From NCBI GenBank assembly GCA_016782425.1, contig JADHYN010000008.1, forward strand, positions 1-43,652: a DNA stretch of 43,652 nt, written 5' to 3'. This document shows positions 1 through 39,342 of the stretch, in pieces; positions within the stretch are counted from its first letter, which is position 1, and every line of letters starts with the position of its first letter. The DNA is from Candidatus Omnitrophota bacterium (GTDB lineage Bacteria > Omnitrophota > Gorgyraeia > JABMRN01 > RBG-13-46-9). The position numbers were made by a program, and so were the translations under genes. A model generated the notes under the pieces. The model had not been told where the DNA came from and did no database searches. It worked only from the letters and a program-made list of their open reading frames with translations.

Positions 1-43
1 TAGCGCTTGCTAAACTACTTGCCAAATATATCACTTAAAGATA

Positions 44-2275
44 ATGATACAATTATACGGTCTATCAAACCTAATTGGCGCTGTAACTAATTCAACCATA
101 GCTTTATTTGTTTATTTTAAAGGGCGCCATAGTAAGCTTTCTAAAATATGGGCGTTTTTTACTTTTTGCGTTGCCATCTATGGATTTGGCGCATATATGG
201 CGGTTACAGCGCAGAATTATGATTCGGCGTTTTTCTGGTGGCAGGTATCATATGTAGGCGTTATTCTTTTACCAGCTCTTTTCCTGCACTTTGTCCTTTC
301 CTTTCTCGAAATAAAAAAACCGATTCTGCTTAATGTAGTTTACGTAATTACATTTTTGATTTGGATAGCAAACATAGTTAGCAAAAATTTATTCATAGGA
401 CACGTAAGTTTGCTTTTTACCGATTCTAGAATTTATAAACCTGCTTGGTGGGTTTACCCTCCAGGACCACTTCATATTTTTCATACCCTCATACTTTATT
501 TTGGATTATTAACTTATGCAATGATTCTTTTAATAAAATCTTATCGTAGTGCAAGTCGATTTAAACAAAACCAAATTAAATATTTCTCTATCGCAATGAT
601 CTTGGGATTTGCTGGAGGAGGGACATCGTATTTACCTTGCTTTGGCATAAATCTATATCCAGTTTTCAATATAACGGTACCGCTGTATACATTTATAATT
701 GCCTATACTATTATTCGCCACCAACTTATGGATATATCTGTAGTCATAAAGAAGACTCTCGTTTTTGCGAGCCTGTTTGCAATAGTCTTAGGAATATTTA
801 TCGGTATAACACTAATAACTCAAGAATTGATCGTAGGTGGTAAGATTTTAGGTTTGGCGATAAGTTCAATAATTATCATTTTTGCCGTGCGACCGCTGGA
901 AGATTTTCTTGTAAAAGTAACCGATAAGTATCTGTTCCAAAAAAAGTATGATTATAAACAGATTCTCAAATCCTTTATTGATGAAGTTATTACCGTATTA
1001 AGCCTTGACAGAATACTTGAGAGCACAATCGATTTGCTTAACAAAACGCTTCATCCGAAAAACGTAGACATTCTACTTTTTAATAAACATGAGGATAAAT
1101 ATGTTTCATATAAGGCTATCAAACGCAACGAAATTCTTACAGTGGGAAACGATGCGCAGCTTATACTGCTTCTAAAGTCTACAAATGAGATTATATCTAT
1201 GGAGAGTAGTGAATATCTTAGCAATAAGAGCTTAACAAAAGAAATGGAGAAACTGAAAGCCGAACTTATTATTCCACTAACGCTAAATGATGACTTAATT
1301 GGAGTTATGATTTTAGGTAAGAAAAAATCAGATGAAGAGTATAATAAAGAAGATATCGATATATTAACTGACCTTGCGCGTACGGAAGCTATTGCTATAA
1401 AAAATTCCCAAGTGCTAAACGAGCTAGCCGAACAAAAAAAAGTAGCTGATCTGGGGAAGATGATGTCTTTTCTGAGCCATAATATTAATAATCATCTGGG
1501 AAGAGCGCGTAACAGACTCCAAACAATTATGTATACGGAAGATGTTGTTAATAAATTGAAAGACGAAAACCTTTCCTATGACAAACGGAAAGATATTGCT
1601 GAAAAACTATCGCAGCATCTGGATTTAGTAGATAAATATATAGAAGCTAGCGCCTCTGTCGTTAAAAAAGCTAGGGATTTCGCGAAGCCTTCCCAAGGCG
1701 CTTTTGCCTCACTTAACGTAGAAAAGTCTCTTAATACGGCTATAGATATGGTTAAGGAGCTTAAATACAAAAAAAGCGTACGACAGATACCCATTTATCT
1801 TGAAATCGAAAAAGGAATTCCTGGAGCCAATGCGAAAGAAGAAGATTTAAGAGAGGTTACTATAGCAATTCTCGATAATGCGATGGATGCAATAAGGATG
1901 AAAGAGCTTCAATTGGGAAAAGATGAGTCCGATAATGTAAAGGTAAAAGTGGCACATTTAAAAAACGCAAACCAAATAGAGATAAGATTTATAGATACCG
2001 GCATAGGCATTAAACCCGAAGATAAAGAATCTATATTTTTGCCTTATTTTACAACCAAAGGATCCAGCGCTCTTTATGAAAGTTTTGCCAGAAGAAAAGA
2101 AATCGAAAGCGGTAATAGCCAGGAAGATAAGGTAGTAGGCACCGGCCTGGGCCTCGATCTTGTAAAAAACCTTGTAGAAAATCTCATGAAAGGTTCAATG
2201 CGGATCGAAAGCGAATATAAAAAAGGAGCTACTTTTATAGTTAATATTCCGGTATGGTCGGAGACAAGAATATGA
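44..2275 (+). CDS. Membrane sensor histidine kinase (HisKA_7TM-like N-terminus, GAF-like region, DHp, HATPase_c)
   Basis: ~290-aa multi-TM N-terminus; GAF-like LIIPL..LIGVMILGKKKS..YNKEDIDIL; H-box LSHNINNHL; N-box ILDNAMDA; G1 DTGIGI; F-box FLPYFTTK; G2 GTGLGL. Confidence 0.95.
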   Translation: MIQLYGLSNLIGAVTNSTIALFVYFKGRHSKLSKIWAFFTFCVAIYGFGAYMAVTAQNYDSAFFWWQVSYVGVILLPALFLHFVLSFLEIKKPILLNVVYVITFLIWIANIVSKNLFIGHVSLLFTDSRIYKPAWWVYPPGPLHIFHTLILYFGLLTYAMILLIKSYRSASRFKQNQIKYFSIAMILGFAGGGTSYLPCFGINLYPVFNITVPLYTFIIAYTIIRHQLMDISVVIKKTLVFASLFAIVLGIFIGITLITQELIVGGKILGLAISSIIIIFAVRPLEDFLVKVTDKYLFQKKYDYKQILKSFIDEVITVLSLDRILESTIDLLNKTLHPKNVDILLFNKHEDKYVSYKAIKRNEILTVGNDAQLILLLKSTNEIISMESSEYLSNKSLTKEMEKLKAELIIPLTLNDDLIGVMILGKKKSDEEYNKEDIDILTDLARTEAIAIKNSQVLNELAEQKKVADLGKMMSFLSHNINNHLGRARNRLQTIMYTEDVVNKLKDENLSYDKRKDIAEKLSQHLDLVDKYIEASASVVKKARDFAKPSQGAFASLNVEKSLNTAIDMVKELKYKKSVRQIPIYLEIEKGIPGANAKEEDLREVTIAILDNAMDAIRMKELQLGKDESDNVKVKVAHLKNANQIEIRFIDTGIGIKPEDKESIFLPYFTTKGSSALYESFARRKEIESGNSQEDKVVGTGLGLDLVKNLVENLMKGSMRIESEYKKGATFIVNIPVWSETRI

Positions 2276-2637
2276 TAAAAGTACTACTTGTAGATGACGA
2301 TCCAGAAATGAGAACCTGCGTAGGCGGGTTTCTTAAATCAAGAGGCTTTCAAGTAAGTGATGCCAAAACAGGGGAAGAAGCTATTAAATTGGTAAAAGAA
2401 GAGTCCCCTGATAGCGTACTTCTTGATATACATCTATCACAGGGCATAAGCGGAATAGATGTACTTAAACAAATAAAAGAAATCAATCAAAATATAAAAG
2501 TTTTGATGGTTACGGGATTTATAGATCACGAAAAAGAAGCCGAATGTATGAACCTTGGCGCGAACGGATATATAATGAAGCCGATAAACTTCCCCGAATT
2601 AGACAATACGTTGAGAAACAGTATAGGTAAACGCTAA
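2272..2637 (+). CDS. Single-domain response regulator (receiver only)
   Basis: KVLLVDDD, LLDIHL..SG, VTG, KP; ATG at 2272 overlaps the kinase stop (ATGA). Confidence 0.93.
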   Translation: MIKVLLVDDDPEMRTCVGGFLKSRGFQVSDAKTGEEAIKLVKEESPDSVLLDIHLSQGISGIDVLKQIKEINQNIKVLMVTGFIDHEKEAECMNLGANGYIMKPINFPELDNTLRNSIGKR

Positions 2638-3104
2638 TGGCAGACTTAGAAAGACTATCTCCGATTCGCGAATTGTTCCATACGTTTATAAGTAAAGTAA
2701 CAAGCCTACAAACTGTTGCATATTTTTTTGCGTATCAACTCAAGGAAGTCTTACGTAATGGTAAAGTTAGCCAACACGTCAACAAAGACATAAAAACAAC
2801 GTTAGACAAGATAGAGAATTACTCCGTGCTGGCTAGAGGTATAATGAAAGAAATCAAAGGGGAGATAGCAAAGATGAGCATCTCCGACCGATGTAAACCT
2901 TTTATCGATTCGATTGAGGAAGCTATAAATAATATTTCTACTCAGATTAAGTGTATTAAAGACACTTATGACAAAACACAGGATTTTGAACATAAAGCCA
3001 ACATTGAGGCTATTGTAGATGAATTCGAAAAGATAGACCCATATTGTCTTACGATCGCGAGTATTTATAGAGACATGAAAGATAAATCCGTTCTGGAGAA
3101 ATAA
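2637..3104 (+). CDS. Hypothetical all-helical protein, possible stand-alone DHp/phosphotransfer protein
   Basis: 155-aa ORF coupled by TAATG; RELFHTFISKVTSL resembles an H-box helix; amphipathic helices; function inferred. Confidence 0.6.
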   Translation: MADLERLSPIRELFHTFISKVTSLQTVAYFFAYQLKEVLRNGKVSQHVNKDIKTTLDKIENYSVLARGIMKEIKGEIAKMSISDRCKPFIDSIEEAINNISTQIKCIKDTYDKTQDFEHKANIEAIVDEFEKIDPYCLTIASIYRDMKDKSVLEK

Positions 3105-3117
3105 GAGGATAAAAACT

Positions 3118-3492
3118 ATGGCAAAAATATTTATAGCCGATAACGAACCCGAAATAAACAGGTCGTTAAAAAGCTTTTTTGGACACCTAGGATATGATAC
3201 TGAAGCTGCGAAAGAGATAAAAAACGCCGATAGCATAGTGAAAGAAGCAAGGCTTTTCAACCCGGATATGGCACTTTTAGACGTCAGAATTAATAAGGTG
3301 CTAAATTTGGAGGTGATAAAACAGATAAAAAATGCAAATAAAGCCATCAAGATAATAGTGATGAGCTCATATATGGGCGATAGCGAAAAAGATACAATAC
3401 ATGAGATATTAACTCACGGAGCAGATAATTATCTTGCAAAACCAATCGACTTAAATGAGCTCATGAATATTGTAAAAGAAAGTTTGGTGTAA
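3118..3492 (+). CDS. Single-domain response regulator, atypical
   Basis: IFIADNE, LLDVRI (phospho-Asp kept, usual MP..DG loop absent), MSS, KP; RBS GAGGA. Confidence 0.9.
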   Translation: MAKIFIADNEPEINRSLKSFFGHLGYDTEAAKEIKNADSIVKEARLFNPDMALLDVRINKVLNLEVIKQIKNANKAIKIIVMSSYMGDSEKDTIHEILTHGADNYLAKPIDLNELMNIVKESLV

Positions 3493-3493
3493 A

Positions 3494-3871
3494 ATGATTA
3501 AAATACTACTTGTAGACGACGAAAAGGGCATAACGGAGGCGTTGCAGGGATTTTTTAAGCAAAGGGGTTTTGCGACAAAAACAGCTAATAGCGGAGAAGA
3601 GGCCCTAAAATCGGTAAAGACCGACAAGCCGGACATCGTGTTTCTTGATATAAGGATGAAGGGCGCGAACGGTCTTGATGTACTCGAACAAATTAAGAAA
3701 ATAGACAATAATATAAAGGTAATAATGCTTACCATTCACGAGGAAAAAGAGATGGTCGAAAAAGCATCTGCTTTAGGCGCCGATGAATACATAACAAAGC
3801 CATTCAGGATAGGGTATTTGGAAGAAGTGGTAATCAAAAAAATACAGGAATTAATGAAGGATAAAAAATGA
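3494..3871 (+). CDS. Single-domain response regulator
   Basis: ILLVDDE, FLDIRMKGANG, MLT, ITKPF. Confidence 0.95.
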   Translation: MIKILLVDDEKGITEALQGFFKQRGFATKTANSGEEALKSVKTDKPDIVFLDIRMKGANGLDVLEQIKKIDNNIKVIMLTIHEEKEMVEKASALGADEYITKPFRIGYLEEVVIKKIQELMKDKK

Positions 3872-4260
3872 CAAAACCGGTTATACTAGTCGTAGACGAC
3901 GAAAAAGACGCGCGTTCAACGATAATCAACTTTCTGGATCAAAGGTATGATTGTGATTTTAAAGAAGCGAATGACGGCGATGAGGCAGTGGCCTTTGTTA
4001 AAGACAAGCCGTGCGACGTTATGTTGCTTGATATCAAAATGCCTAAAAAAAGCGGCATGACTGTCGTTAAAGAAGCAAAGGAGATCAATCCAGAGATCGA
4101 TATATTAATAATATCAGCTTGGGTAAGCGAGGATGTGGCGGAAGAAGCCATGAAATTAGGCGCTACAGATTACGCTATAAAGCCGTTGGATCTCAAAGCC
4201 ATATCATTGAAGTTCGAGAATATATTGAAGAAACGAGGGCAGTGTATCAGTAAGATTTAG
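3868..4260 (+). CDS. Single-domain response regulator
   Basis: ILVVDDE, LLDIKMPKKSG, IISA, IKPL. Confidence 0.95.
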   Translation: MTKPVILVVDDEKDARSTIINFLDQRYDCDFKEANDGDEAVAFVKDKPCDVMLLDIKMPKKSGMTVVKEAKEINPEIDILIISAWVSEDVAEEAMKLGATDYAIKPLDLKAISLKFENILKKRGQCISKI

Positions 4261-4837
4261 GATTCTGTATTATTATCGCGCGCGATTTAATCTTCTTTGA
4301 AGGGTTTTCGAAATGATGGGGGATATTGCTGGCAAAAGATAGCGTATCTCCCTTTTTTATAAGATGTTTTTCCTGCCCAATATGGCATAAAACCTCACCC
4401 TGCAATACAATAACGAGTTTTTCAAATCTGTCGATTCCTACAGGGTCTTCCTCCAGTTTTGTAGCTCCTCCCGGTGTAAGGCCAAGTTCCATAGTTAAGA
4501 ATTTTATATTTGACGAGCTTAAAATCTCGGCAATAGCTTTTTCATTATAAAAATACCGGTTCTCCGCTCTCTCTGAATTCTTTATAATTGTAACGATTTT
4601 CGACTCTTCCTGATCCGTGCCCTCTTTTAGTTCTTTAAGCGATATTCCAAGGCCCGTACAAATCTGATATAGGCTTGTTAACCGGATATCCGACCGATAG
4701 CCTTTTTCAAGACGACACAGGCTATAGTAGGTGAGAGCCTTATCTCCGAATATATCGACAAGCTTTTTATGAAACTCTCTCATGCTCAATTTGGCTACGC
4801 GCTTGCGGTAATCGCGGATTTTTTCATACAACTTCAT
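4247..4837 (-). CDS. XRE-family HTH transcriptional regulator with C-terminal cupin domain
   Basis: N-terminal KIRDYRK..SLCRLEKG..SLYQICTGLGISL; C-terminal VLQGEV..IKKGDTLSFASNIPHHFENP. Confidence 0.9.
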   Translation of the reverse strand: MKLYEKIRDYRKRVAKLSMREFHKKLVDIFGDKALTYYSLCRLEKGYRSDIRLTSLYQICTGLGISLKELKEGTDQEESKIVTIIKNSERAENRYFYNEKAIAEILSSSNIKFLTMELGLTPGGATKLEEDPVGIDRFEKLVIVLQGEVLCHIGQEKHLIKKGDTLSFASNIPHHFENPSKKIKSRAIIIQNPKSY

Positions 4838-4863: not shown

Positions 4864-4892
4864 AGTTTACCAGATGAATGAATATTTGTCAA
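4864..4892 (-). promoter_or_regulatory. Sigma70-type promoter for the XRE gene
   Basis: Minus strand TTGACA-17 nt-TAAACT, ending 27 nt upstream of the start codon. Confidence 0.6.
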
Positions 4893-5042
4893 TAGAAAAT
4901 TGCCTTTTATATATTAAAAATAAAAAACAAGAGCAAATATGCTGACTATTTTATATCTTAATATAAGAGCATAACTCTTTATATTGCAAGTAGTTACGTA
5001 TATTAACTGAATATAATGATTGACCTTTTGCTTTAAGTAAAC

Positions 5043-5070
5043 TTGACAAAAGTCAATTATATGATATACT
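5043..5070 (+). promoter_or_regulatory. Sigma70-type promoter with palindromic operator over the -35
   Basis: TTGACA-16 nt-TATACT with extended -10 TG; perfect inverted repeat TTGAC-AAAA-GTCAA at 5043-5056. Confidence 0.65.
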
Positions 5071-5093: not shown

Positions 5094-5276
5094 ATGGATA
5101 TTCTCGATAACCTCTATATTGTAAGCGTAAAAAATAAACATTTTTTACCACACGCTGTTTTGTTTGTAATCGGAATGATAGCTAAAAGGACGATCAGAGA
5201 GCATGAAAAGGAAGTTGTTAAATACCTTGGAGACAATATACCTTTGAATCTTCTCGATAGGATCAAGAATGTATAG
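5094..5276 (+). CDS. Small hypothetical protein (60 aa)
   Basis: Strong RBS AAAGGAG before ATG 5094, directly downstream of the promoter. Confidence 0.6.
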   Translation: MDILDNLYIVSVKNKHFLPHAVLFVIGMIAKRTIREHEKEVVKYLGDNIPLNLLDRIKNV

Positions 5277-5295
5277 CGATAGGCAGGTGAGCATC

Positions 5296-5499
5296 ATGGA
5301 AAAGGTTAAATGTACAAAATGTGGAAGCATAGGATATACAGCTTCTCCCGGAAGCGTGCGATGCTCAAAATGCGGTGGCCAACACGAGGTCGTAATAATG
5401 ACAAAAGAAAATAATAAACCTATAAAGACCGAATCAATTTCTTACCTGCAGAGCTTATCTGTGGGTAATGAAAACCCGGGCACTTTCTGCCGAGATTAG
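5296..5499 (+). CDS. Small zinc-ribbon protein
   Basis: CTKC..CSKC motif pair; RBS-like AGGTGA; alternative start at 5269. Confidence 0.7.
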   Translation: MEKVKCTKCGSIGYTASPGSVRCSKCGGQHEVVIMTKENNKPIKTESISYLQSLSVGNENPGTFCRD

Positions 5500-5534
5500 T
5501 GCCCGGACCTATATATATGATAAAGAGGTGTGAC

Positions 5535-5783
5535 ATGAAAGTGCTTATAAAAATACGAAACAGCCCCGAGCAGATTTTTCTGGTGGACCTCAAGGGCAAG
5601 ACCCTGATCAAGGATATTAAGGGATATGTTAATGCGAAAAAACTTGATAAGGCAATAGTAGAGACATTGTCTCGGGGAAGATTTGAAAAAGAACTTCGGC
5701 ATGACGAACTGCTATCAGCCAATGCTGATCTGGTCCTTACAAAAAATAATGCTCGCTGGGATATTGTAAAAAACTCAAAGTAA
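5535..5783 (+). CDS. Small basic hypothetical protein (82 aa)
   Basis: RBS GAGGTG before ATG 5535; third gene of an apparent operon. Confidence 0.65.
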   Translation: MKVLIKIRNSPEQIFLVDLKGKTLIKDIKGYVNAKKLDKAIVETLSRGRFEKELRHDELLSANADLVLTKNNARWDIVKNSK

Positions 5784-6003: not shown

Positions 6004-6155
6004 AACTAAAAACTACTCACTTTTTTCTTTCCGGCCGGTATACGCACTGTCCGTCGAGGATTCGCATCATTAAACCCACCCGACGCAACTTTTTTAAAAA
6101 ATAATGCAGCAAAACGGCATTTTCTGCGTCTATATATATGAAGGGGGGTGATTTT

Positions 6156-6521
6156 ATGACCGAAAGCGAATTCTGGTTATTCTTAGAACTTTCAAGAGCG
6201 GGCCGGCAAATTCCGGTTGTTTCAGGTTATGTTGACAGCAATGATGAATCGGTCCAAAAAGCCGGTAAATACATCGGAGGCCATTCGGTATTATTCAAAG
6301 GCCACGATAAATTGCCCATCAATGTGATACATGACATGGGCGGGCTTCTTTTGGCAAGACAAACTTCACACAAAGCAAAAGAAGCTATTTTGATAATACT
6401 TGCTCATCATCCTACGGTAGAGGCTCTTGATATCCTGAAAAGGTACAATCAAAATCCGGACCCCGCGCTGAAGTACATGGCGTACTTCGCCCTGGATGAG
6501 TGCCTAATGTGGAATGAGTAA
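6156..6521 (+). CDS. Hypothetical protein with HEAT-like helical C-terminus
   Basis: RBS GGGGGTGA; KEAILIILAHHPTVEALDILKRY..DPALKYMAYFAL resembles a HEAT/PBS repeat. Confidence 0.65.
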   Translation: MTESEFWLFLELSRAGRQIPVVSGYVDSNDESVQKAGKYIGGHSVLFKGHDKLPINVIHDMGGLLLARQTSHKAKEAILIILAHHPTVEALDILKRYNQNPDPALKYMAYFALDECLMWNE

Positions 6522-6543: not shown

Positions 6544-7503
6544 ATGGCCAGGCCGTTGAGAATAGAATATCCGCATGCCTTTTATCATGTGATACAACGC
6601 GGAATAGAAAGGAAGAGTATCTTTGTTTCTGATAGAGATAAAGAGAAATTCCTTTCTTATATTGAGTCTGCAAATAAATCGCACGCCGCGCTCGTCCATA
6701 CTTATGTGCTGATGAACAATCATTATCACCTTATCCTTGAAACACCCAGGGCTAATCTAGTAAAAATAATGCACTACATTAACGCAAGTTATGCCATTTA
6801 TTTCAATGTTAAACGGAAAAGAATGGGGCCTTTATATCAGGGAAGATATAAGGCGATTCTCGTTCAGGAGGAAGAATATCTTCACCATTTATCTCGATAC
6901 ATTCATCTAAATCCCGTAAGGGCAAAAATCGTAAAAGACCCTATTGATTATAAGTGGAGTAGCTATAAATATTTTGTATCAAATGCTCTCCCGCCTAAAT
7001 GGCTTGTAACAGAACCTATTCTTTCAACGTTTAACGCAAATCCAGGCAAAGCAAAAGCTCTATACAGGGATTTTGTGATCTTTGGCATAGAAGAAGAAAA
7101 ATATAACTTTTTGGATAATTTACGAGAAGGTTACGTATTAGGAAATAGTGACTTTTTTGAAAACATAAAAAGAAAAGTATCGTACCGGAAAGATGAGCCC
7201 GAAATACCTGTTATGCGCAAGATAAAACAGCGTGGTCAACCAAGCCTTGGAAACATCCTAGATATAGTAAAAAATATGGCCGCGGAGAATGCTCGCCTGG
7301 AGAGAAAGCTCGTAATATATCTTGCTAAAACGTACACTGATAATTCATTGCGTAATATTGCGTCTTTTTATGGAAATTTAAAATATAAGACTGTCAGCAA
7401 AATATGTGAGCGTATAAAAAAGTTAAGGCAAAAAGATAAGAAGTTCGATGCCCTGTTAAATCAGATGGAAAAAGCCATAGAAATGTCGAATGTCGAGACC
7501 TGA
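6544..7503 (+). CDS. REP-associated tyrosine transposase (Y1_Tnp, HUH) with C-terminal HTH
   Basis: MARPLRIEYPHAFYHVIQRG, YVLMNNHYHL (HUH), QGRYKA, RYIHLNPVRA, YKWSSY; C-terminal SLRNIASFYG HTH. Confidence 0.93.
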   Translation: MARPLRIEYPHAFYHVIQRGIERKSIFVSDRDKEKFLSYIESANKSHAALVHTYVLMNNHYHLILETPRANLVKIMHYINASYAIYFNVKRKRMGPLYQGRYKAILVQEEEYLHHLSRYIHLNPVRAKIVKDPIDYKWSSYKYFVSNALPPKWLVTEPILSTFNANPGKAKALYRDFVIFGIEEEKYNFLDNLREGYVLGNSDFFENIKRKVSYRKDEPEIPVMRKIKQRGQPSLGNILDIVKNMAAENARLERKLVIYLAKTYTDNSLRNIASFYGNLKYKTVSKICERIKKLRQKDKKFDALLNQMEKAIEMSNVET

Positions 7504-7642: not shown

Positions 7643-8041
7643 ATGCCATCTGACGTAACAGGCAAAAAAGCTAAAATCGCTATTATAGATGATGAAAAAG
7701 CTTTAGTCGAAACTCTAAAATCCTTTTTAGAAGAAAGGGGTTTTTCTGTAATTAGCGCATATGACGGCGCAAGCGGCCTCGAATTAATAAAAAGAGAAAA
7801 ACCAGATATCATTATATTGGACATTACTATGCCGGAATTGGATGGCAGAGATGTCTTGATACAATTGAAAAAGAACGAAGATACAAAAAGCATTCCCGTT
7901 ATAATGCAAACCGTAAAAAACGAGCCGTTTGACGTGGATTACGGGATGGAATTAGGTGCGGATGACTACCTGCCTAAGCCGTGCGAGGTACACCGTTTAT
8001 TAAAACACATTGACGCTATCCTGGAAAAGAGAAAAGGATGA
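7643..8041 (+). CDS. Single-domain response regulator
   Basis: IAIIDDE, ILDITMPELDG, MQT, LPKP. Confidence 0.95.
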   Translation: MPSDVTGKKAKIAIIDDEKALVETLKSFLEERGFSVISAYDGASGLELIKREKPDIIILDITMPELDGRDVLIQLKKNEDTKSIPVIMQTVKNEPFDVDYGMELGADDYLPKPCEVHRLLKHIDAILEKRKG

Positions 8042-8047
8042 CCGCCC

Positions 8048-8440
8048 ATGAGTCATAACGAAGAAGTATCATATGGTGGATCCGAAAGAAGGCAATGTAA
8101 AAGAATCAGAAAGTCTTTTGTCATGCGCTTCCGCCAAAAAGATGATGCGGAAGGCGGCTGGAGCATGGTGACGACGAAAAACTTAAGCGCAAAAGGAGCG
8201 ATGTTTACTTACAATAAACCCCTGCCCAAGGACAGCTTTTTGGACCTGAAGATAAACTTTCCCAATATAAACGGACCCATAGAATGCATGGCTAAAATAC
8301 TGCGTTTTGAAAAATATCCGAACAGCTTGCTTTTTAACACTGCTGTTACGTTTACGGATATCGCTGAGAGCGCGAAAAATATAATCAACGAGACAGCTGA
8401 ATCATTCTATCTGCGAAAGGCGGATAGAATCGAACCGTGA
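8048..8440 (+). CDS. PilZ-domain protein (candidate c-di-GMP receptor)
   Basis: ERRQCKR (RxxxR) and NLSAKG (D/NxSxxG) motifs. Confidence 0.85.
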   Translation: MSHNEEVSYGGSERRQCKRIRKSFVMRFRQKDDAEGGWSMVTTKNLSAKGAMFTYNKPLPKDSFLDLKINFPNINGPIECMAKILRFEKYPNSLLFNTAVTFTDIAESAKNIINETAESFYLRKADRIEP

Positions 8441-38445: not shown

Positions 38446-39342
38446 ATGAATAAAAAGACTAAAATCCTTGTATGCGATGACGAGAAGAGCATACGCAGCG
38501 TGCTGAAGGTTATTCTCGAGTCCGAAGGGTACGAGGTCATAATCGCCTCGACCGGCAGGGAGGCCGTAGAGATTTTCAAGAAAGACCCACCGTCTCTCAT
38601 TCTCCTGGATGTATCTATGCCCGGGATGACCGGTTTTGAGGTCATGGACAATATAAAGGAATATTTCGGAGAAAACTACATACCTATATTGTTTCTTACA
38701 GCGAGTATAAAAATAGACGATAAGCTCAGGGCCCTTCACCGAGGAGCAGTGGATTACCTGGTAAAGCCGGTGTCGCCAAAAGAGCTTATCCTGCGTATAC
38801 AGAATTTCCTTGAAATAAAGGCAAAACATGATGAGCTTAAAAAAGAAGCCACTTTCGACTGGATGACAGGGGCCCTGAACCGCGCCCACTTCATAAGGCA
38901 GGCTCGCGAAGAGCTCGACAAGGCCCTGAGGAATAACTTTTCGGTAGCTATCATTCTTCTGGATATAGATAATTTTAAAGAGATAAACGACACGAAAGGC
39001 CACGCTGCGGGGGATAGGGTCATAAGGGAGTTCGCTGACAGAATAAAGAAGCTTATTCGGAAAATAGACCTTTTCGGCCGTTTCGGCGGGGACGAATTCA
39101 TAATAATGCTTTCTCACAAGACCGAAGAAGAGGCTAAAAGCGTCTCAGAAAGGCTTCTTAGCATGTTGAGTAAGCCCATTGTCTTTGAAAAGGAGAAGAT
39201 ACGGGCAACCGCTAGCATAGGCATATCGCAAAAAGAGGTTGGAAGCGCTCCATCTGACCTTGAAAAGCTTACCCAGCTTGCTGATCAGGGCCTCTATGCT
39301 GCCAAATCCAAAGGCGGCAATACCTATATTGTTAAATCCTAA
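38446..39342 (+). CDS. REC-GGDEF diguanylate cyclase (WspR/PleD-like)
   Basis: Receiver LLDVSMPG; DWMTGALNR, DIDNFKEINDTKGHAAGD, I-site RKID, intact GGDEF. Confidence 0.95.
   Translation: MNKKTKILVCDDEKSIRSVLKVILESEGYEVIIASTGREAVEIFKKDPPSLILLDVSMPGMTGFEVMDNIKEYFGENYIPILFLTASIKIDDKLRALHRGAVDYLVKPVSPKELILRIQNFLEIKAKHDELKKEATFDWMTGALNRAHFIRQAREELDKALRNNFSVAIILLDIDNFKEINDTKGHAAGDRVIREFADRIKKLIRKIDLFGRFGGDEFIIMLSHKTEEEAKSVSERLLSMLSKPIVFEKEKIRATASIGISQKEVGSAPSDLEKLTQLADQGLYAAKSKGGNTYIVKS

Follow-up and report, generated by a model that had tools for sequence, protein, structure and literature searches.

A free-standing DHp-like protein among lone receivers suggests a linear phosphorelay in an uncultured Omnitrophota bacterium

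The 43,652-nucleotide contig JADHYN010000008.1 of a Candidatus Omnitrophota bacterium, analyzed here over its entire length and called the window, opens with a tightly packed operon that encodes a seven-transmembrane (7TM) sensor kinase, four lone receivers (REC1 to REC4) and a 155-amino-acid protein of no recognized family. We find that this protein is likely a free-standing DHp domain and a predicted phosphotransferase, in which His15 would carry the phosphate, because its homology to kinase DHp domains, its invariant histidine, its modelled fold and its gene order all support this assignment. An earlier sequence-only reading of this DNA had already singled out the gene as a candidate phosphotransferase. 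We also hold it to be somewhat probable that the operon encodes a linear relay, running from the kinase through REC1 and the DHp protein to REC3 and/or REC4, and not a branched one. The phylum Omnitrophota is uncultured, its members have been described as host-dependent nanobacteria, and in the main text of their main genomic survey the terms 'two-component', 'quorum', 'signal' and 'di-GMP' do not occur (PMC10066038).

The 155-residue protein resembles the DHp hairpin of histidine kinases

Searches with the 155-residue protein (2637..3104, forward strand) against Pfam, NCBIfam and the PDB sequences returned no family. It does not reach the curated cut-off of the HisKA profile (PF00512), nor does the DHp domain of the window kinase itself, and the Hpt profile (PF01627), run at E values up to 1 on 20 proteins including this one, gave no match. 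Homologue searches recovered 2 proteins, then 7 representatives and then members in 15 of 401 genomes, with three further weak matches of profile A1 in frames of about 300 amino acids; metagenome scans yielded no locus from the single sequence and one from a five-sequence alignment. When 13 long homologues are aligned, only Phe14 and His15 (codon 2679-2681) are invariant, the histidine being present in 13/13.

Weak matches revealed a short family of 75-90 amino acids that corresponds to the N-terminal half of the protein (probability 96.9). Its histidine is kept in 85 of 87 homologues, and the two exceptions are fragments. The profile of this short family, which also matches the 155-residue protein, hits 48 of the 401 genomes in 55 rows, comprising 29 short frames and 26 long ones (278-772 amino acids), and seven short-frame hits came with no locus; all nine of the long frames that we opened read as 7TM/GAF kinases. 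Compared directly with local kinase DHp domains, the N-terminal half aligned with a probability of 96.4 (E 1e-9), histidine upon histidine, and still with 95.9 once the kinases of the window and of a related genome, G007, had been removed. The controls failed to reproduce this: the reversed sequence gave a probability of 0.5, and the best of 30 block shuffles scored 27.8 against 48.7 for the real sequence. The C-terminal half, which has no histidine, gave a probability of 45 and a score of 23.6 against 15.4 for its best shuffle, weak support for its being a degenerate second DHp.

The AlphaFold monomer model is an all-helical four-helix bundle with a predicted local distance difference test score (pLDDT) of 89.7, in which a hairpin bearing the histidine packs with a second hairpin lacking one. 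A relative, L055, carries a clear tandem of two short DHp units. We infer that the 155-residue protein is a single-chain pseudo-dimer of DHp hairpins. Its neighbors in the Atlas are proteins of 78-86 amino acids, one of which is named as a histidine-kinase family, and the nearest cluster carrying a Pfam family has HisKA, at 18%.

Comparison with characterized carriers

The phosphotransferases characterized so far follow two designs, HPt bundles and DHp dimers, the latter seen in Spo0B and ChpT. Like monomeric HPt proteins (PF01627; the LuxU and YPD1 types), the 155-residue protein has a single histidine and is predicted to be a monomeric four-helix bundle, but this histidine lies in helix 1 within an H-box of the DHp type, and the homology of the sequence is to kinase DHp domains, with no match to Hpt. 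The KinA-Spo0F-Spo0B-Spo0A relay of Bacillus and the ChpT relays of Caulobacter and Brucella also join a free receiver to a histidine carrier derived from a kinase DHp hairpin (PMC3433190, PMC5231405), and the Omnitrophota relay would work like the Spo0F-Spo0B or CckA-ChpT relays (PMC3433190, PMC5231405, PMC12471899). ChpT shares the hydrophobic residue at H+2, two positions after the histidine (His33, Phe35; PMC3433190, PMC5231405). By contrast, ChpT forms homodimers and carries a degenerate, ATPase-like domain at its C-terminus, whereas the 155-residue protein is all-helical and has no such alpha/beta domain. Similarly, the Spo0B bundle is built from two subunits, whereas the 155-residue protein is predicted by its monomer model to complete the bundle within one chain. 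The terminal receivers, unlike those of the Spo0B and ChpT relays, have no output domain.

A HisKA-only shuttle between two receivers exists as a database annotation class (PMC3013651, PMC4618731, PMC9953108), so the concept is not categorically new. What distinguishes the free DHp family from that class is its score below Pfam HisKA, its single, tandem and REC-fused forms and its fixed gene order. Because of this low score, annotation pipelines based on HisKA would miss the family. Lone receivers in abundance are known from archaea (PMC5847659). The literature that we searched, with most subscription papers and supplements outside its reach, held no description of these Omnitrophota loci, of a free DHp family or relay, or of an XRE operator that covaries with the regulator's putative recognition helix, and no characterized DHp-only carrier.

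Gene order suggests a linear relay

The operon reads, all on the forward strand, kinase (44..2275), REC1 (2272..2637), the DHp-like protein, REC2 (3118..3492), REC3 (3494..3871) and REC4 (3868..4260), and a gene for an XRE-type regulator with a cupin domain (4247..4837, reverse strand) converges on it. All frames are intact, and neighboring genes within the run are separated or overlapped by 13 nucleotides or less, as the coupled run of the sequence-only reading would have it. REC1 begins with the ATG at 2272, for an overlap of 4 nucleotides with the stop of the kinase gene (an alternative in-frame ATG lies at 2254); REC1 and the DHp gene overlap by 1 nucleotide, gaps of 13 and 1 nucleotides precede REC2 and REC3, REC3 and REC4 overlap by 4, and the convergent REC4 and XRE-cupin genes by 14. 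The six-gene run is not a mis-assembly, because unbroken contigs from two studies, one of them possibly the source sample, cover 1286-4328 and 1226-4077 and so cross from the GAF region of the kinase to REC4.

Each of the four receivers is a single-domain Response_reg match in Pfam without an output domain, as had been noted. Such lone receivers are not special to the locus but typical of the whole genome (G000; 1.3 Mb, 82% complete), where they account for 10 of the 13 receiver domains above the cut-off, the other three being REC-GGDEF proteins. REC1, REC3 and REC4 retain the acidic pair, the phospho-accepting aspartate, the Thr/Ser and the lysine. In REC2 the second aspartate of the acidic pocket is replaced by asparagine, and its only close homologue, in G007 (49%), has cysteine at that position and is truncated. 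REC2 is thus likely a dead or modulatory leftover, a pseudo-receiver or a decaying gene, at odds with the working branch that it was first taken for.

The order of genes in relatives points to how the remaining parts may connect. We assembled 27 loci with a free DHp of long or short form, six of which are one family and therefore not independent. A kinase-REC-DHp order occurs in 18/27 (once with an inserted gene, once with a second short DHp between) and kinase-REC precedes the DHp in 7 of the 8 long-form loci; the receiver type that follows the kinase in these relatives is that of REC1. Receivers flank the free DHp on both sides in 14 loci and lie downstream only in 4, the downstream partners being either REC3-REC4 or a REC fusion with GAF-HD-GYP behind it. 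A kinase gene and then a lone receiver gene usually precede the free DHp in relatives, and we therefore assign it a likely role in a multi-step relay.

A second set was anchored on the XRE-cupin gene (32 loci, six of which supplied the query). REC4 is directly convergent in 23 of these, REC3 and REC4 are both present in 18, a 7TM/GAF kinase stands in the run in 11 and a free helical protein with the histidine in 10; eight have no convergent receiver. Without the six query-supplying loci, the figures for directly convergent REC4 and for the His protein are 18/26 and 7/26. The expectation that the synteny would recur in relatives is borne out for the core, since kinase, REC, His protein, REC3 and REC4 converge on XRE in 7/32 loci from several lineages, and not for the exact four-receiver order of the window, found in 0/32. 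REC3 is fused to REC4 in some relatives.

A further helical family with an invariant histidine, which we call type B and which has members in 26 of the 401 genomes, fills the same slot between receivers. Its units occur singly or, often, in tandem, and many are joined to an acyl carrier domain. As a DHp homologue it was rejected (probability 0.3 against the 155-residue protein and 7.6 against the kinase DHp) and is kept as an analogue only. In L079, L084 and L091 receivers alternate with both His protein families, as a six-step chain would require. Type B examples are found at L006:8823-9317 and L095:10350-11141, in L148, L150 and L152, and as the N-terminus of proteins of 794-935 amino acids with PAS-like repeats.

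The branched relay to all receivers proposed at first is unsupported, because the alternation of REC and His proteins fits a linear chain. In that chain, phosphate would be exchanged first between the 7TM kinase and REC1, next between REC1 and His15 of the free DHp, and then between the DHp protein and REC3 and/or REC4; we infer this order and direction of transfer, as we do the ligand and the output considered below.

DHp genes were also seen in two other settings. L049, L052 and L053 hold orphan short DHp genes in housekeeping surroundings with no receiver nearby. REC-DHp fusions without an ATPase domain lie behind the XRE-divergent promoter at L088:7522-8154, L091:2504-3202, L093:3116-3751 and L094:4083-4709, where they could form a feedback arm.

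Weighing the relay against alternatives

Several observations weigh against the linear relay. The loci are related by kinship, and several profiles were built from loci that were later counted. Five of the 27 free DHp genes have no nearby receiver on the same strand, 4 of the 32 XRE loci have a His protein missing beside their kinase and receivers, and one homologue (L082) is without the histidine. Among the matches that Foldseek and VIA-align listed for the model there are only generic four-helix bundles and no HPt or DHp, a result that excludes nothing. The tie between REC4 and the XRE-cupin protein is one of gene adjacency. Finally, the kinase, whose phosphorylatable residue would be His479 (codon 1478-1480) and whose N, G1, F and G2 boxes are intact around a long ATP-lid insertion, has the histidine and boxes of a class I HisKA autokinase and carries asparagine at H+1, where four HisKA proteins need an acidic residue for kinase activity (PMC3510030). 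Glutamine or asparagine at H+1 is found in 14 of 19 kinases that precede a free DHp, in 12 of 24 without one and in 0 of 8 that precede type B.

This last point feeds the strongest alternative, since in a kinase without an acidic H+1 phosphate may be drained instead of relayed: the receptor would be phosphatase-biased, and the free DHp would drain or dephosphorylate receivers loaded by another kinase. We regard this as unlikely, if the most serious of the competing accounts. In four HisKA proteins including CrdS and HK853, an acidic H+1 is needed for kinase activity and Thr or Asn at H+4 for phosphatase activity (PMC3510030), and the window kinase, with asparagine at both positions, falls on the phosphatase side of that division. 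The short DHps likewise have asparagine at H+4 (85/85 full-length members) and never an acidic residue among the commonest at H+1; DHp-type relay steps are reversible (PMC5231405), and the genome holds other kinases. However, H+4 is serine in the 155-residue protein and its four closest homologues, the ATP-binding boxes of the kinase are intact, and a non-acidic H+1 also occurs in kinases with no DHp neighbor. The invariance of the histidine, too, suits a carrier. A phosphatase need not keep its histidine, whereas a carrier needs it.

It is less probable still, and in our estimate quite improbable, that one kinase phosphorylates several receivers directly, the branched scheme of the sequence-only reading, while the free DHp has no catalytic part and modulates signaling by binding the kinase or sequestering receivers. 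The four XRE loci without a His protein would fit such a scheme, short DHp forms could pair with a kinase DHp, and there is precedent in RetS, which inhibits GacS autophosphorylation via its catalytic core (PMC5992135). Yet the long form is modelled as a complete bundle in one chain and would offer no open dimer face, its helix 1 differs from helix 1 of the kinase's own DHp, and the histidine is invariant in proteins that alternate with receivers.

Least probable of all is a recombined mosaic of kinase-REC1-DHp-REC2 and REC3-REC4-XRE without cross-signaling and partly decaying. In its favor, G007 has the first module but not REC3/REC4, G017 has the second but no DHp, REC2 is degenerate, the operon is AT-rich (GC content 0.33-0.41 versus 0.45) and a 97%-complete genome of the same genus has no match for the DHp-like protein, the XRE regulator or a close kinase core. 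Against it, the joined form recurs in those seven loci from several lineages, and the frames of the window's run are all intact and tightly coupled.

The sensor may respond to a self-made lipid-like signal

For the linear relay, the neighborhood of the sensor suggests an input. The 743-residue kinase has a 7TM-GAF-DHp-CA arrangement (Pfam HisKA_7TM, GAF and HATPase_c). Its gene is mosaic: the 7TM domain is 63-66% identical to those of four relatives whose DHp domains are only 10-30% identical, while the DHp domain of the G007 kinase is 81% identical to its own. Upstream of the kinase, the contig start cuts a gene of which the last 11 codons and the stop remain (3..38, forward strand), and the rest of this gene is on no contig of the genome. 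One contig of run X3 reaches some 870 bases past the contig start. It is likely the C-terminus of a GMC oxidoreductase, because its 11-residue translation resembles GMC C-termini and because a GMC gene lies directly upstream in 7 of the 8 closest sensors (at least 44% identity), and one gene further in the eighth; among weaker sensor matches the figure is 2/21. Other enzymes beside the sensors of relatives are an aldehyde dehydrogenase, a NAD_binding_4 reductase, acyl-ACP-reductase-like proteins (ACP, acyl carrier protein) and ketosynthases, and the enzyme varies with the sensor domain. The ligand sensed by the 7TM kinase would then be a self-made signal derived from fatty acyl chains.

In the quorum circuits CqsA/CqsS-LuxU-LuxO of Vibrio and phcBSR of Ralstonia, a gene for a lipid-type enzyme lies beside that of a multi-transmembrane kinase that feeds a multi-step relay. 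The Omnitrophota loci share the lipid-type enzyme beside such a kinase and the variation of the sensor with the enzyme. They differ in the enzymes (GMC oxidoreductase, aldehyde dehydrogenase and acyl-ACP/acyl-CoA reductase-like proteins, with a putative signal only), in a receiver that is not fused to the kinase and in the lack of a sigma-54 or LysR output in the locus.

Three side observations concern such sensors. At L006:3896-5611 a receiver is fused to a beta-ketoacyl synthase upstream of genes for ACP, a thioesterase and a 7TM kinase, possibly placing a lipid pathway under phospho-control. At L036:4558-5757 a pyridoxal phosphate-dependent enzyme of the aminotransferase class, presumably resembling alpha-oxoamine synthases, lies two genes before a 7TM-GAF kinase. 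In runs X1-X4 (window 37-1414) a second sensor gene is about 81% identical over 37-1137 and then diverges, with variant alleles at about 1050-1390, a pattern that fits exchange near the GAF domain but may stem from other organisms.

The XRE-cupin regulator and the possible outputs

The XRE-cupin protein has a Pfam cupin domain, no Pfam helix-turn-helix match (this motif was read from the sequence) and a weak match to PuuR. A predicted divergent promoter at 5019..5070 (forward strand; -35 at 5043-5048, -10 at 5065-5070) is the likely operator, since two 9-bp half-sites, 5019-5027 and 5049-5057, flank its -35 box in inverted orientation. A third half-site that resembles an operator, 4899-4907, accompanies the predicted promoter of the XRE-cupin gene itself at 4864..4907 (reverse strand; -35 at 4892-4887). 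The inverted pair is the only one of its kind in the genome, and at 7/9 or better it recurs in 22 of 28 homologous promoters, against a null of 2.6%. Half-site identity averages 6.9/9 among loci with like putative recognition helices and 3.6 otherwise (28 loci, with kin not independent). Taken as a whole, the predicted promoters and terminators are about as numerous as chance would give. The regulator likely controls both itself and the small operon that diverges from it, whose counterparts in relatives hold additional REC or DHp genes. Here the promoter is followed by two small open reading frames (5269..5783, forward strand), for a 76-residue protein with two CxxC motifs and a protein of 82-94 residues, which recur beside XRE in relatives.

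Gene linkage suggests that REC4, the predicted terminal receiver and conserved partner of REC3, may regulate the XRE-cupin protein. Because no DNA-binding domain is fused to a receiver in the assembled genome, the relay most likely acts through protein contacts, either with this regulator or with enzymes of cyclic di-GMP (c-di-GMP) turnover. The earlier suggestion of a c-di-GMP link is plausible insofar as the runs of relatives end in GAF-HD-GYP and the only REC-fused outputs of the genome are GGDEF domains; for the particular REC-GGDEF gene at 38446-39342, we found no link beyond its position on the same contig. The statement that che genes are missing holds up in the 82%-complete genome, where neither CheW nor Hpt, and hence no Hpt-bearing CheA, was matched, so that the operon does not group with chemosensory systems.

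Taken across the phylum, these data prompt a tentative proposal, which we think may well be too broad: Omnitrophota would build four- to six-step phosphorelays wholly from free receivers and free DHp hairpins, single, tandem in one chain or fused to REC. Such hairpins would be an undescribed phosphotransferase class without a CA domain, in which the tandem form turns a dimeric DHp into an HPt-like monomer, and the chains would connect swappable sensors of lipid signals both with an XRE-cupin switch that regulates itself and with c-di-GMP turnover, no DNA-binding response regulator being needed. A family made of the bare hairpin would be a minimal further phosphotransferase design that is invisible to Pfam, possibly caught on the way from a dimeric DHp to a monomeric carrier, and it would give a role to many 'hypothetical' genes of 75-160 amino acids and lone receivers in this uncultured phylum. 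The relay parts are small soluble proteins, which opens the claim to in vitro tests that need no culture.

Neighboring genes and a paralogous locus

A fifth lone receiver (REC5, 7643-8041) and a PilZ gene (8048-8440), both Pfam matches, had been counted toward the system. We rejected them as members: they share the contig with the operon and show no further link, a transposase and other genes intervene, PilZ has no match in 170 loci, and the closest REC5 paralogue (70%) lies in an unrelated context. The intervening gene at 6544-7503 resembles REP-associated (repetitive extragenic palindromic) tyrosine transposases with a DnaA-type C-terminal helix-turn-helix. Before it, 6138-6521 encodes a 127-residue protein of no known family, a 41% homologue of which also follows a DHp-REC operon behind XRE in another genome (G354, L025). 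Elsewhere in the window's own genome, contig C35 (L003:4704-17163) carries a paralogous locus in which genes for a reductase, GMC, nitroreductase and FAD oxidoreductase lead into a 7TM-GAF kinase, two receivers and GAF-HD-GYP. No free DHp was detected at this locus, which faces an XRE-cupin gene, a receiver and two 7TM kinases.

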